Below, piece by piece: positions 1-4,223 of a DNA stretch of 4,223 bases. Source of the DNA: a virus (lineage: Duplodnaviria; Heunggongvirae; Uroviricota; Caudoviricetes); the IMG/VR virus record IMGVR_UViG_2565956712_000005. One strand, 5' to 3'. The translations under genes and the position numbers were made by a program. The notes beneath the pieces were generated by a model. It saw nothing but the letters and a program-made list of their open reading frames with translations. It had not been told where the DNA came from and made no database searches. Every line of letters begins with the position of its first letter. Position 1 is the first letter of the stretch.

Positions 1-2636
1 ACCCGCGCTACGGCATGGGGAAACGTCTTGGTGCGGCGGATGTGGACAAATGGGCGCTGTATGTCATCGGCCAGTACTGCGACCAGTCAGTGCCGGACGG
101 CTTTGGCGGCACGGAGCCGCGCATCACCTGTAATGCGTACCTGACCACACAGCGCAAGGCGTGGGATGTGCTCAGTGATTTCTGCTCGGCGATGCGCTGT
201 ATGCCGGTATGGAACGGGCAGACGCTGACGTTCGTGCAGGACCGGCCGTCGGATAAGGTGTGGACCTATAACCGCAGTAATGTGGTGATGCCGGATGATG
301 GCGCGCCGTTCCGCTACAGTTTCAGCGCCCTGAAGGACCGCCATAATGCCGTTGAGGTGAACTGGATTGACCCGAATAACGGCTGGGAAACGGCAACAGA
401 GCTTGTGGAGGACACGCAGGCCATTGCCCGTTACGGTCGTAACGTCACGAAAATGGATGCCTTTGGCTGTACCAGCCGGGGGCAGGCGCACCGCGCCGGG
501 CTGTGGCTGATTAAAACGGAACTGCTGGAAACGCAGACCGTGGACTTCAGCGTGGGCGCAGAAGGGCTTCGCCATGTGCCGGGCGATGTCATTGAAATCT
601 GTGATGATGACTATGCCGGTATCAGCATCGGCGGGCGCGTGCTGGCGGTAAACAGCCAGACCCGGACGCTGACGCTCGACCGTGAAATCACGCTGCCATC
701 CTCCGGTACCACGCTGATAAGCCAGGTTGACGGAAGTGGCAATCCGGTCAGCGTGGAGGTTCAGTCCGTCACCGACGGCGTGAAGGTGAAAGTGAGCCGT
801 GTTCCTGACGGCGTTGCTGAATACAGCGTATGGGGGCTGAAGCTGCCGACGTTGCGCCAGCGCCTGTTCCGCTGCGTGAGTATCCGTGAGAACGACGACG
901 GCACGTATGCCATCACCGCCGTGCAGCATGTACCGGAAAAAGAGGCCATCGTGGATAACGGGGCGCACTTTGACGGCGACCAGAGCGGCACGGTGAATGG
1001 TGTCACGCCGCCAGCGGTGCAGCACCTGACTGCCGAAGTCACCGCAGACAGCGGGGAATATCAGGTGCTGGCGCGCTGGGACACGCCGAAGGTGGTGAAG
1101 GGCGTGAGCTTTATGCTTCGCCTGACCGTGGCAGCGGATGACGGCAGTGAGCGGCTGGTCAGCACGGCCCGGACGACGGAAACCACATACCGCTTCACGC
1201 AACTGGCGTTGGGAAACTACAGGCTGACAGTCCGGGCGGCAAATGCCTGGGGGCAGCAGGGCGATCCGGCGTCGGTATCGTTCCGGATTGCCGCACCGGC
1301 AGCACCGTCGCGGATTGAGCTGACACCGGGGTATTTTCAGATAACCGCCACGCCGCATCTTGCCGTTTATGACCCGACGGTACAGTTTGAATTCTGGTTC
1401 TCGGAAAAGCGGATTGCGGATATCAGACAGGTTGAAACCACAGCGCGCTATCTTGGCACGGCGCTGTACTGGATAGCTGCCAGTATCAATATCAGGCCGG
1501 GCCATGATTATTATTTTTACATCCGCAGTGTGAACACCGTTGGCAAATCGGCATTTGTGGAGGCTGTTGGCCAGCCGAGTGATGATGCATCCGGCTATCT
1601 GGATTTTTTCAAAGGAGAGATAGGGAAAACCCATCTGGCTCAGGAGTTGTGGACGCAGATTGATAACGGTCAGCTTGCGCCTGACCTGGCTGAAATCAGG
1701 ATGTCCATTACGGATGTCAGCAATGAAATCACGCAGACCGTCAATAAGAAACTGGAAGACCAGAGTGCAGCGATCCAGCAGATACAGAAGGTTCAGGTTG
1801 ATACAAATAATAACCTGAACAGCATGTGGGCTGTGAAGCTGCAGCAGATGCAGGACGGACGCCTTTATATCGCGGGTATTGGTGCCGGTATTGAGAATAC
1901 CCCTGACGGTATGCAGAGTCAGGTGCTGCTGGCGGCGGACAGGATTGCGATGATTAATCCTGCGAATGGCAACACAAAGCCGATGTTTGTTGGTCAGGGC
2001 GATCAGATATTCATGAACGAAGTGTTCCTGAAATACCTGACGGCTCCCACCATTACCAGCGGCGGTAATCCTCCGGCATTTTCCCTGACACCGGACGGGC
2101 GGCTGACGGCGAAAAATGCAGATATCAGCGGTAACGTGAATGCGAACTCCGGGACGCTCAACAATGTCACGATTAATCAGAACTGCCGGATTCTGGGAAA
2201 ACTGTCAGCCAACCAGATTGAAGGCGATATTGTTAAAACGGTGGGCAAAGCTTTCCCCCGGGACTCCCGTGCACCGGAGCGGTGGCCATCAGGGACCATT
2301 ACCGTCAGGGTTTATGACGATCAGCCGTTTGACCGGCAGATTGTTATTCCGGCGGTGGCATTCAGCGGCGCTAAACATGAGAGAGAGCATACTGATATTT
2401 ACTCCTCATGCCGTCTGATAGTGCGGAAAAACGGTGCTGAAATTTATAACCGTACCGCGCTGGATAATACGCTGATTTACAGTGGCGTTATTGATATGCC
2501 TGCCGGTCACGGTCACATGACGCTGGAGTTTTCGGTGTCAGCATGGCTGGTAAATGACTGGTATCCCACAGCAAGTATCAGCGATTTGCTGGTTGTGGTG
2601 ATGAAGAAAGCCACCGCAGGCATCAGTATCAGCTGA
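1..2636 (+). CDS. J: Host-specificity / central tail fibre protein J, C-terminal 873+ codons; 5'-truncated by window edge (reading frame is open from nt 3, the ATG at 15 is internal)
   Basis: Single long ORF in frame 3 with no stop between the window start and TGA at 2634-2636. The translation ([12 protein letters not shown]...[59 protein letters not shown]...) matches my recollection of phage lambda gpJ, which is 1132 aa, so about 260 N-terminal residues lie upstream. Two fibronectin-III-like blocks (about nt 1005-1295 and 1305-1570) as in gpJ. Gene order J-lom-stf is the lambda arrangement. Confidence 0.9.
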
Positions 2637-2654
2637 ATTTTATAACCCCAATAC

Positions 2655-2682
2655 GGGCGTCAGAAATGACGCCTTTTTTATT
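2655..2682 (+). terminator. Rho-independent terminator downstream of J (7-bp perfect stem GGCGTCA / TGACGCC, GAAA loop, then TTTTTTATT)
   Basis: Read directly: ggcgtca (2656-2662), gaaa (2663-2666), tgacgcc (2667-2673), followed by the T-run 2674-2682. It lies 20 nt after the J stop codon. Confidence 0.7.
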
Positions 2683-2692
2683 GCAGAAAAGC

Positions 2693-2698
2693 GAGAGG
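2693..2698 (+). promoter_or_regulatory. Shine-Dalgarno sequence (GAGAGG) for lom, 5 nt upstream of the ATG
   Basis: Purine-rich gagagg at 2693-2698 with a 5-nt spacer to ATG at 2704. Confidence 0.6.
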
Positions 2699-2703
2699 TA
2701 ATT

Positions 2704-2775
2704 ATGCGTAAATTATGTGCTGTTATTCTGTCCGCAGTAGTCTGGCTGGTTGCCGCTGGTACGCCAGCGAGCGCA
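2704..2775 (+). other. Sec signal peptide of Lom (24 codons; predicted cleavage after ASA)
   Basis: Basic N-region (MRK), hydrophobic core (LCAVILSAVVWLVAA), and A-S-A at positions -3 to -1 before AEHQ. Confidence 0.7.
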
Positions 2776-3303
2776 GCAGAGCATCAGTCCACACTAAGCG
2801 CCGGGTATCTTCAGACCCATACTGATATGCCAGGCAGTGATGACCTGAAGGGCATTAACGTGAAATACCGTTATGAATTTACGGACACGCTGGGGCTGGT
2901 GACGTCATTCAGTTATGCCAATGCCAAAGATGAGCAAAAAACGCATTACAGCGATACCCGCTGGCATGAAGATTCCGTGCGTAACCGCTGGTTCAGCATG
3001 ATGGCGGGGCCATCTGTACGCGTGAATGAATGGTTCAGTGCTTATGCGATGGCGGGTATGGCTTACAGCCGTGTGTCGACCTTCTCCGGGGATTATCTCC
3101 GCGTAACTGACAACAAGGGGAAAACGCACGATGTGCTGACCGGAAGTGATGACGGTCGCCACAGCAACACGTCTCTGGCGTGGGGGGCTGGCGTGCAGTT
3201 TAACCCGACCGAATCCGTGGCCATTGACCTTGCTTATGAAGGTTCCGGCAGTGGTGACTGGCGCACTGACGGTTTCATCGTGGGTGTCGGTTATAAATTC
3301 TGA
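2704..3303 (+). CDS. lom: Lom-family outer membrane protein (Ail/Lom/OmpX/PagC 8-stranded beta-barrel family), 199 aa, complete
   Basis: Complete ORF with SD. N-terminal signal peptide MRKLCAVILSAVVWLVAAGTPASA followed by AEHQ (A-x-A signal peptidase I site). The C-terminal block AYEGSGSGDWRTDGFIVGVGYKF with terminal Phe matches my recollection of the lambda Lom C-terminus and the usual outer-membrane beta-barrel signature. KGINVKYRYE and SAYAMAGMAYSR motifs resemble Lom/Ail strands. Position between J and stf is as in lambda. Confidence 0.9.
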   Translation: MRKLCAVILSAVVWLVAAGTPASAAEHQSTLSAGYLQTHTDMPGSDDLKGINVKYRYEFTDTLGLVTSFSYANAKDEQKTHYSDTRWHEDSVRNRWFSMMAGPSVRVNEWFSAYAMAGMAYSRVSTFSGDYLRVTDNKGKTHDVLTGSDDGRHSNTSLAWGAGVQFNPTESVAIDLAYEGSGSGDWRTDGFIVGVGYKF

Positions 3304-3330
3304 TTAGCCAGGTAACACAGTGTTATGACA

Positions 3331-3358
3331 GCCCGCCGGTTCAGGCGGGCTTTTTTGT
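3331..3358 (+). terminator. Rho-independent terminator downstream of lom (7-bp GC-rich stem GCCCGCC / GGCGGGC, 6-nt loop, then TTTTTT)
   Basis: Read directly: gcccgcc (3331-3337), loop ggttca (3338-3343), ggcgggc (3344-3350), T-run 3351-3356. It lies 27 nt after the lom stop codon. Confidence 0.75.
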
Positions 3359-3362
3359 GGAG
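3359..3362 (+). promoter_or_regulatory. Shine-Dalgarno sequence (GGAG) for stf, 5 nt upstream of the ATG
   Basis: ggag at 3359-3362, with ATG at 3368; it sits immediately after the terminator T-tract. Confidence 0.55.
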
Positions 3363-3367
3363 TGGAT

Positions 3368-4223
3368 ATGGCAGCAGTAAAAATCTCAGGTGTGCTGAAA
3401 GATGGTGCGGGAAAACCAATACAGAACTGCACTATTCAACTGAAGGCAAAGCGTAACAGCACCACGGTACTGGTGAACACGGTGGCCTCTGAAAATCCGG
3501 ATGAAGCCGGGCGTTACAGCATGGATGTTGAGTATGGCCAGTACAGCGTTATCCTGCTTGTTGAAGGTTTTCCGCCTTCACATGCCGGAACCATTACCGT
3601 CTATGAAGGTTCCAGACCAGGTACGCTGAATGATTTTCTCGGTGCCATGACGGAAGATGATGTCATGCCGGAGGCATTGCGTCGTTTTGAGGAAATGGTG
3701 GAAGAAGCGGCACGCAACGCCGAAGCCGCCTCTCAGAGCGCAGCGGCGGCAAAGAAATCCGAAACTGCAGCGGCATCATCGAAGAACGCGGCGAAAACCT
3801 CAGAAACGAATGCAGCTAATAGTGCACAGGCGGCAGCGACCTCACAGACTGCATCAGAAAACTCCGCGACAGCAGCCAAAAAATCAGAAACCAACGCGAA
3901 AAATAGCGAGACAGCCGCAAAGACGAGCGAAACCAACGCAAAGTCCAGCCAGACGGCAGCGAAAACCAGCGAAACGAATGCCAAAGCCAGTGAAACTGCG
4001 GCGAAAAGCAGTCAGGATGCAGCAGCCGAAAGCGAGAGTGCTGCAGCTGGTTCTGCAAGCGCGGCTGCTGCTTCTGCCACTGCATCAGCTAACAGTCAAA
4101 AAGCAGCAAAAACCAGTGAAACCAACGCAAAGGTGAGCGAAACAGCGGCTGCGAACTCAGCGAAAGCATCGGCAGCAAGCCAGACGGCAGCTAAAGCAAG
4201 CGAAGATGCAGCCAGAGAGTACG
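3368..4223 (+). CDS. stf: Side tail fibre protein Stf, N-terminal 285 codons; 3'-truncated by window edge
   Basis: Frame-2 ORF from ATG 3368 is open to the window end. The N-terminus MAAVKISGVLKDGAGKPIQNCTIQLKAKRNSTTVLVNTVASENPDEAGRYSMDVEYGQYSVILLVEGFPPSHAGTITVYE... matches my recollection of the conserved prophage tail-fibre N-terminal domain of lambda Stf. This is followed by an Ala/Ser/Thr-rich repetitive shaft typical of Stf and T4 gp37-like fibres. Absent from the ORF track only because no stop codon falls in the window. Confidence 0.85.
   Translation, partial: MAAVKISGVLKDGAGKPIQNCTIQLKAKRNSTTVLVNTVASENPDEAGRYSMDVEYGQYSVILLVEGFPPSHAGTITVYEGSRPGTLNDFLGAMTEDDVMPEALRRFEEMVEEAARNAEAASQSAAAAKKSETAAASSKNAAKTSETNAANSAQAAATSQTASENSATAAKKSETNAKNSETAAKTSETNAKSSQTAAKTSETNAKASETAAKSSQDAAAESESAAAGSASAAAASATASANSQKAAKTSETNAKVSETAAANSAKASAASQTAAKASEDAAREY
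3757..4223 (+). repeat. Degenerate in-frame tandem repeats inside stf encoding an A/S/T/K/E-rich low-complexity shaft (recurring K-T/S-S-E-T-N-A-K and S-E/Q-T-A-A-K units)
   Basis: Recurring nucleotide units such as aaaaccagcgaaaccaacgcaaag, tcagaaaccaacgcgaaaaat and agcgaaacgaatgccaaagcc. Translated, these give AKTSETNAANS, KKSETNAKNSETAAKTSETNAKSSQTAAKTSETNAKASETAAKSSQ and AKTSETNAKVSETAAANSAKASAASQTAAKASEDAA. Confidence 0.7.

Follow-up and report, generated by a model that had tools for sequence, protein, structure and literature searches.

A modular J gene with a long shaft allele and a 1A2-type, probably OmpC-docking tip in a common lambdoid prophage tail region of E. coli

The J-lom-stf locus and the domain chain of J

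The window analysed here, a stretch of 4,223 nt, carries J, lom and stf in this order, as do lambda and Escherichia phage PhiR55_1 (Table 1). The J reading frame is open over nt 3-2636 on the plus strand (877 codons), with its 5' end beyond the window. By BLASTP the fragment starts at lambda gpJ residue 283, aligns over residues 283-1131 and is identical to lambda gpJ at 689 of its 877 positions. Downstream of J lies a terminator-like hairpin, and a terminator is annotated at the equivalent site in phages 21 and Ayreon. At the nucleotide level the window shares 96.7% identity with PhiR55_1 (PV340571) and 98.7% with a prophage in E. coli 2013C-4282, and DNA like it occurs in 5,007 of 5,426 complete E. 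coli genomes, which marks it as a lambdoid prophage tail region that is common in this species.

Table 1. Features of the window, in nucleotide positions or, where marked aa, in residues of the J fragment.
Feature	Position	Strand	Details
J hub domains (aa 1-327; lambda residues 283-609)	3..983	+	GC 0.61, GC3 0.74; identity to lambda ~97% (aa) and 93-99% (nt)
Phage-tail_3 (PF13550), hub	aa 48-214		E 4.5e-43
First Ig/FNIII domain (aa 328-432)	984..1298	+	Ig_J PF24421, E 5.4e-42
Compositional change point, best nt 1331	1298..1390 (support)		GC 0.619 to 0.510
Second Ig/FNIII domain (aa 434-536)	1302..1610	+	Ig_J_second PF24489, E 1.6e-39; GC 0.53
Long-allele alpha-helical shaft and upper beta-prism module (aa ~521-670)	1561..2010	+	
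28 shaft residues with no counterpart in lambda (aa 554-574 and 578-584)	1662..1754	+	alignment gaps
Phage_Tail_Tip (PF09327), central fibre	aa 590-718		E 6.6e-32
Conserved lower-prism linker	1981..2250	+	83-100% nt identity to all phages compared, 30-nt bins
1A2-type C-terminal Ig-like RBD (aa 719-877)	2157..2633	+	Pfam, PDB 9wca and 8xcj matches
Ig_GpJ_C (PF12421), "C-terminal receptor binding domain"	aa 747-877		E 2.3e-37
Terminator-like hairpin with T run, after J	2655..2684	+	
lom (Ail/Lom outer-membrane beta-barrel protein)	2704..3303	+	Pfam Ail_Lom, E 1.5e-127
stf (side tail fibre), 5' part, leaves window	3368..4223	+	Pfam phage_tail_N, E 7.8e-68

Five Pfam J domains are arrayed along the fragment, all scoring over their curated cut-offs, and phmmer aligns it with gpJ chains in the PDB at E-values from 1e-117 to 5e-139. 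This unambiguous homology to solved gpJ structures indicates that the fragment belongs to the lambda-type tip attachment proteins. The central fibre of lambda has been divided (Ge and Wang 2024, PMC11101478) into a pair of FNIII domains, the alpha-helical shaft or AHS (residues 809-861), the beta-sheet prism or CSF, and the Ig-like RBD, which has four loops at its bottom.

Identity to lambda gpJ is distributed along the fragment as a mosaic. The initial annotation had described a body of roughly 530 residues near-identical to lambda, a substituted segment around residues 536-640 and a last stretch of about 150 residues that is homologous yet substantially diverged, and alignment bears out all three. 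Residues 1-535 are 97.0% identical to lambda gpJ, residues 536-640 only 31.4% with 28 gap positions that represent extra residues, residues 641-718 are back at 83.3%, and the last 159 residues (719-877) are at 45.0%. The peptides quoted earlier from the J C-terminus are likewise present in the translation. Nucleotide identity follows the same course: 91-98% until nt 1500, a collapse at ~1560-2000, 83-93% at 1981-2160 and 33-70% from there on. Set against the lambda fibre, the first diverged block (nt 1561-2010) matches the shaft and upper prism and the second (nt 2157-2633) the RBD; the conserved island between them is the lower prism. Divergence from lambda then passes the J stop codon, crosses the intergenic region and enters lom, the 5' half of which is part of the differing block, and ends at ~nt 3200. 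Further downstream, identity to lambda returns to 80-87% until ~nt 3700 and drops anew in stf. The continuation of the diverged block beyond J into lom had escaped the initial annotation.

A GC step inside J that is shared with lambda

A drop in GC content inside J had also been reported, placed at about nt 1620, equated with the protein mosaic and taken as support for horizontal exchange. The drop itself is real: GC is 0.62 at the 5' end of J and 0.475-0.55 between nt 1600 and 2600, and the LLR of a single change point is 16.1, exceeding the maximum of 10.1 in 500 shuffles. Its position is another matter. The fit is best with a change point at nt 1331, and the LLR falls to 10.2 when the point is fixed at nt 1573 and to 8.8 at nt 1620. 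The step thus lies ~240 nt before the first break in identity (nt 1561-1575), within DNA that matches lambda at 96% of positions, and is out of register with the protein mosaic. The change point that fits lambda J best is at the homologous nucleotide (codon 725), where GC falls from 0.61 to 0.53. Since lambda carries the same step at the same nucleotide, the step is no evidence for an exchange specific to the window, and we rejected it as a signature of that exchange.

The step is visible at third codon positions, where GC3 before and after it is 0.74-0.78 versus 0.56-0.65 in the window and 0.71-0.75 versus 0.60-0.68 in lambda, and is therefore not an effect of amino-acid composition. It falls where one Ig/FNIII domain gives way to the next (aa 432/434, ~nt 1298-1302). 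The first of these is the most GC-rich segment of J (GC 0.65, GC3 0.78); the second is, before nt ~1561, 91-96% identical to lambda at the nucleotide level. The J gene of VT1-Sakai is 73% identical to the window until nt 1330 and 95% identical beyond, its last mismatch cluster ending at nt 1280; VT1-Sakai swaps the hub module at the position of the GC step, with identity rising just ahead of it (~nt 1281-1300). We take the step to be an older joint between hub and fibre modules at the Ig/FNIII boundary, common to lambda.

That the drop records a recent gain of a foreign, AT-richer C-terminus by the window phage is a reading to which we give hardly any credence. The step is significant, and the swapped modules do lie 2.5-3.7 GC points under their lambda counterparts (shaft module 0.496 versus 0.521; RBD 0.507 versus 0.544), a gap that by our own estimate is within sampling error for ~300-480 nt. 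Against a foreign origin stand the location of the step in lambda-like DNA, its presence at the same nucleotide in lambda itself, and the loss of support when the change point is moved to the edge of the diverged block. The G+C content of E. coli is typically ~51%, and as GC after the step (0.51) is close to this value, it is the GC-rich hub that is the outlier. GC steps within phage genes can thus be old and shared, which makes them unsafe as a sign of a particular recent exchange.

Independent assortment of shaft alleles and RBD types

We aligned the J proteins of the window and 12 other phages and mapped nucleotide identity in bins of 150 nt and 30 nt. Two shaft alleles emerged; identity is ~31% between them and 97-99% among copies of the same allele. 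The short allele is carried by lambda, 434, 2H10, 2G7b and PhiR47_1, and the long allele by the window, PhiR55_1, 21, 1H12, ev243, Ayreon, Chlobot and mEp332. The same 13 phages display four RBD types (lambda; 434; an A8/21 family; and the type of the window), and of the eight ways to pair a shaft allele with an RBD type, seven are seen. The RBD type of the window sits on the short shaft in 2G7b and PhiR47_1, and other RBD types sit on the long shaft in phage 21, Chlobot and ev243.

Pairwise comparisons illustrate this reshuffling. Lambda gpJ (PDB 8IYK, 8XCJ, 8XCK) shares the J-lom-stf order and the domain chain, and its hub and FNIII domains are 97% identical to those of the window; it differs in its short shaft (28 residues shorter, 31% identity), its RBD (45%), a diverged lom and its use of LamB. 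Phage 21 is like the window in its long shaft allele (97% identical) and hub (98%), and unlike it in an RBD of 67% identity, a reported LamB receptor and the lack of lom. PhiR55_1 and the 2013C-4282 prophage have the same long shaft and 1A2-type RBD, with minor point differences only.

The edges of the modules are sharp. The upstream boundary falls at nt 1561-1575 in all phages compared, and downstream crossovers cluster in the conserved linker at nt 1981-2250: 2G7b turns window-like at ~nt 2011, and divergence from the window starts at ~nt 2161 in lambda, ~nt 2191 in 434-type and ~nt 2251 in A8/21-type phages. At such edges identity falls from 97-100% to 23-60% inside one 30-nt bin. Among the 13 phages, independent assortment of shaft allele and RBD type is well supported, and the crossover pattern is what would be expected from homologous recombination in conserved stretches, not from divergence in place. 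The earlier proposal that the receptor-specificity determinant was exchanged horizontally thus gains good support, from the assortment and the linker crossovers and not from base composition.

Could the C-terminus have diverged where it stands, by point mutation under diversifying selection and free of recombination? Evolution of the J specificity region (residues 960-1132) is indeed rapid, and its hot spots have been located at 1012, 1048/9, 1077/8 and 1107 (Maddamsetti et al. 2018, PMC6646904), and the divergence of the window is strongest at these hot spots. We nevertheless regard this origin as very improbable. Besides the drop in identity within a single bin, one RBD type occurs on both shafts and one shaft allele with three RBD families, an incongruence that point mutation would not be expected to leave, and the divergent block runs on through non-coding DNA into lom.

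An origin of the 28 extra shaft residues by internal duplication was not detected (local alignment score 20; shuffled sequences averaged 19 and reached 34). An AlphaFold2 single-sequence model of residues 501-877 reached a mean pLDDT of 39 and a pTM of 0.30, too low to be of use. The lambda shaft flips and partly refolds into beta-sheet, relaying receptor binding to tail opening. Tentatively, the long shaft allele might function as a further module by itself, and its free pairing with every major RBD family would then reflect selection and not just the breakage of linkage; we hold this to be a doubtful idea, on which a longer shaft could alter the reach of the central fibre or its triggering threshold.

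The RBD type, its likely receptor and its prevalence

The RBD of the window is 45% identical to that of lambda, 44.6% to that of 434 (with 12 gap positions), 62% to that of A8 and 67% to that of phage 21. Identity to lambda is 27.7% within four residues of positions 997, 1012, 1048/9, 1077/8 and 1107 and 52.2% elsewhere in the domain. With 45.0% identity to lambda residues 973-1132 and the low value around the hot spots, this is not a lambda-type LamB-binding RBD, and its distance from 434 sets it equally apart from the 434-type OmpC-binding RBD. Its near-identical counterpart is the 1A2 chimera (Brodel et al., Nature 2024, PMC11338833), which is the nearest experimentally characterised relative: the two RBDs are ~96% identical, with six conservative differences over ~159 residues (from window to 1A2: Q to E, I to V, I to L, R to K, D to N and S to T). 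The 1A2 DNA is given in a supplement, a machine-read PDF with indel errors, and was stitched across reading frames before translation. No exact 15-mer of the window was found in that supplement; because the 1A2 RBD is recoded, the comparison was made at the protein level.

Among solved structures the closest is "A8 gpJ 713" (9WCA/9WCB), which phmmer finds in the PDB at E 4.9e-139 versus 4.5e-119 for lambda gpJ713. Entry 9WCB contains "A8 gpJ 713" plus three chains of outer membrane porin C, so that the A8 RBD has been solved in complex with the trimeric porin OmpC. The A8 RBD, carried by 2H10, phi330 and Stx1a phages, belongs to the same family as that of the window; the N-terminal strand and the C-terminal tail are nearly identical, and the differences include indels in two of the four variable loops. 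The natural Stx2a siphophage phi330 needs OmpC, as seen with Keio mutants and complementation. We considered phi330 as a natural carrier of the RBD type of the window and rejected it, because its RBD is almost identical to A8 and thus of the A8 type.

The functional evidence comes from engineered particles. Natural gpJ C-termini were fused to lambda gpJ and variants chosen on a lamB deletion strain, yielding A8 and 1A2, and the chimeras were then assayed in cells lacking both lamB and ompC that had been complemented with any of 23 OmpC variants (Brodel et al. 2024, PMC11338833). A8 functions with OmpC of either MG1655 or EDL933, whereas 1A2 performs efficiently with the EDL933 form and not with that of MG1655 (PMC11338833). 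In lamB-deleted cells 1A2 delivers DNA in an OmpC-dependent manner (PMC11338833; restated in bioRxiv 10.1101/2025.02.28.640725). These experiments concern an engineered, recoded RBD on lambda J with its short shaft, whereas the J of the window is natural and has the long shaft. Judged from the ~96% identical 1A2 RBD, J of the window most likely binds OmpC rather than LamB. The earlier suggestion of a receptor other than LamB thus finds backing in outside experiments on 1A2, extended to the window by RBD similarity. In the Laub collection, the hosts recorded for natural phages carrying this RBD type are E. coli C or ECOR13 and not K-12, which fits, circumstantially, the failure of 1A2 on K-12 OmpC. 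For PhiR55_1, we found no receptor assignment in the literature examined; the SNIPE paper reports, for the PhiR phages, dependence on ManYZ only.

Continued use of LamB, alone or with OmpC, is an unlikely alternative that draws on the relatives of this RBD. Phage 21, with an RBD 67% identical to that of the window and 82% identical to A8, reportedly uses LamB natively and gains OmpC by one mutation, so specificity within the clade is labile; moreover, the 1A2 data establish that OmpC suffices when LamB is missing, which is compatible with LamB use as well. The closer relative weighs on the other side, as 1A2 was OmpC-dependent in the lamB deletion background, and so does the strong divergence from the lambda RBD, most of all around the hot spots.

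Somewhat less probable still is a target among the other trimeric porins (OmpF, PhoE), or a restriction to certain OmpC alleles. 1A2 does tell OmpC variants apart, and lambda and phage 21 both reach OmpF through a few mutations. Lambda D1107 is one of two residues essential for the lambda switch to OmpF (PMC6646904). The residue aligned with it in the window, D852, corresponds to N in 1A2 and to G in both 2G7b and PhiR47_1, and is thus polymorphic within one RBD type. Two of the six differences from 1A2 sit in variable loops, D852 among them and, in the second variable loop, an R of the window that is K in 1A2. Nonetheless, the direct evidence for this RBD type points to no porin but OmpC. Tentatively, the D/N/G polymorphism at the D1107 equivalent might tune the recognition of OmpC alleles.

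Taken as a whole, we think it likely that the J fragment of the window, the final 877 codons of the gene, belongs to a modular J with recombining shaft and RBD and a 1A2-type tip that docks on OmpC. J would be a chain of exchangeable modules: a GC-rich hub with the first Ig/FNIII domain, the second Ig/FNIII domain, the shaft with the upper prism, the lower prism and the RBD. The conserved lower prism would act as a recombination linker, and co-resident lambdoid prophages would recombine homologously in conserved stretches, reshuffling shaft allele and RBD type independently. On the cell surface, the RBD trimer would most likely dock on OmpC, itself a trimeric porin, and not on LamB, and would probably favour particular OmpC variants, that of O157 EDL933 for example; binding may then, by analogy with lambda, trigger a rearrangement of shaft and prism that opens the tail. 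The GC step between the two Ig/FNIII domains would be an older feature, silent on the exchange in the window.

Much of this has precedents. That the J specificity region undergoes recombination and diversifying selection has been described from 1,207 J homologues (Maddamsetti et al. 2018, PMC6646904), and lambda particles have been redirected to OmpC with an RBD of the window type (Brodel et al. 2024, PMC11338833). With J recombination and the function of 1A2 both published, modular J exchange and the 1A2 RBD type are already known and carry little weight as a discovery. In the literature examined we found neither a description of the long/short shaft dimorphism or its independent assortment nor a structural characterisation of the widespread long shaft allele, and the shaft dimorphism is the only part with some residual novelty.

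Prevalence was counted in the 5,426 complete E. coli genomes from matches covering at least 80% of the query. The RBD type of the window is present in 3,365 genomes, with 1,870 records at 95% identity or more, and the long shaft allele in 3,548 (~65%). The lambda RBD was found in 96 (98 with any match), always at 99% identity or more. Given these counts, calling the modules of the window "replaced" relative to lambda, as the initial annotation did, is a lambda-centred description: the modules do differ, but the form in the window is the common one in E. coli. The LamB-binding tip of lambda is the rarity, and the RBD type of the window is carried by most natural E. coli prophages. The carriers of the lambda RBD among the matches listed are laboratory strains.

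Domain borders and receptor-binding domain variants in J

We compared the hub of the window's J with that of VT1-Sakai (L010), which carries a different allele (73% nucleotide identity). Identity between the two rises to 95% within window positions 1281-1331, coinciding with the GC step, and this switch lies at the border of the two Ig/FNIII domains, suggesting a third exchangeable joint in J at that border. According to its annotation, a mutation truncates the VT1-Sakai J. The J of phage phi330, a natural OmpC-dependent Stx2a siphophage (L015 17482-20610), has a more divergent body, with 72% identity to the window across its last 877 residues. Its shaft is a third variant, which has the length of the long allele and is 60% identical to the window shaft; it is joined to an A8-type receptor-binding domain (RBD).

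Members of the window's RBD type differ at J-fragment residue 852 (nt 2556-2558): the window and PhiR55_1 have D, 2G7b and PhiR47_1 have G, and the OmpC-dependent 1A2 chimera has N. This residue aligns with lambda D1107, a critical residue for lambda to gain the use of OmpF. The LamB-binding RBD of lambda itself (L001 3422-3904) was found in only 98 of the 5,426 complete E. coli genomes, every match having at least 99% identity, and the matches listed are laboratory K-12, B and DE3 strains. Lambda, the model phage, is atypical of its family as to its RBD.

Association of lom with the RBD type

The window-type RBD is present in 2G7b, PhiR47_1, PhiR55_1 and VT1-Sakai alike. Window 2637-3000 holds the J-lom spacer and the 5' half of lom; across this half of lom, identity to the window is 99-100% in 2G7b and PhiR47_1, 87-99% in PhiR55_1 and 84-91% in VT1-Sakai. 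Phages with a 434-type or A8-type RBD share another lom allele and reach only 70-85% in this region; the lambda lom is further still from that of the window. A lom gene is absent from phages 21 and 1H12. The beginning of lom seems to move together with the RBD, and physical linkage may be the sole cause.

Terminator-like hairpins and overlapping ORFs

A consensus scan alone found two terminator-like hairpins in the window, compared with 1.0 expected from shuffles. Phages 21 and Ayreon have annotated terminators at the equivalent positions. GC-rich coding DNA usually has an antisense frame poor in stop codons, and the long antisense ORF, which ends shortly beyond the GC fall in J, is probably such a frame. 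Within window 3700-4223, the stf fragment has a region rich in Ala, Ser, Lys and Thr, with imperfect tandem repeats of a 42-nt (14-residue) unit at 3868-4011 and with A strongly outnumbering T (AT skew up to 0.7). The three overlapping ORFs of this region are probably by-products of its repetitive composition.

Hairpins and additional ORFs in the window
Feature	Position (nt)	Strand	Remark
Antisense ORF across GC-rich part of J	87-1634	-	515 codons
Terminator-like hairpin with T run, 3' of J	2655-2684	+	consensus scan only
Terminator-like hairpin with T run, 3' of lom	3330-3361	+	consensus scan only
Overlapping ORF, stf region	3657-4136	+	
Overlapping ORF, stf region	3733-3984	-	
Overlapping ORF, stf region	3816-4085	-
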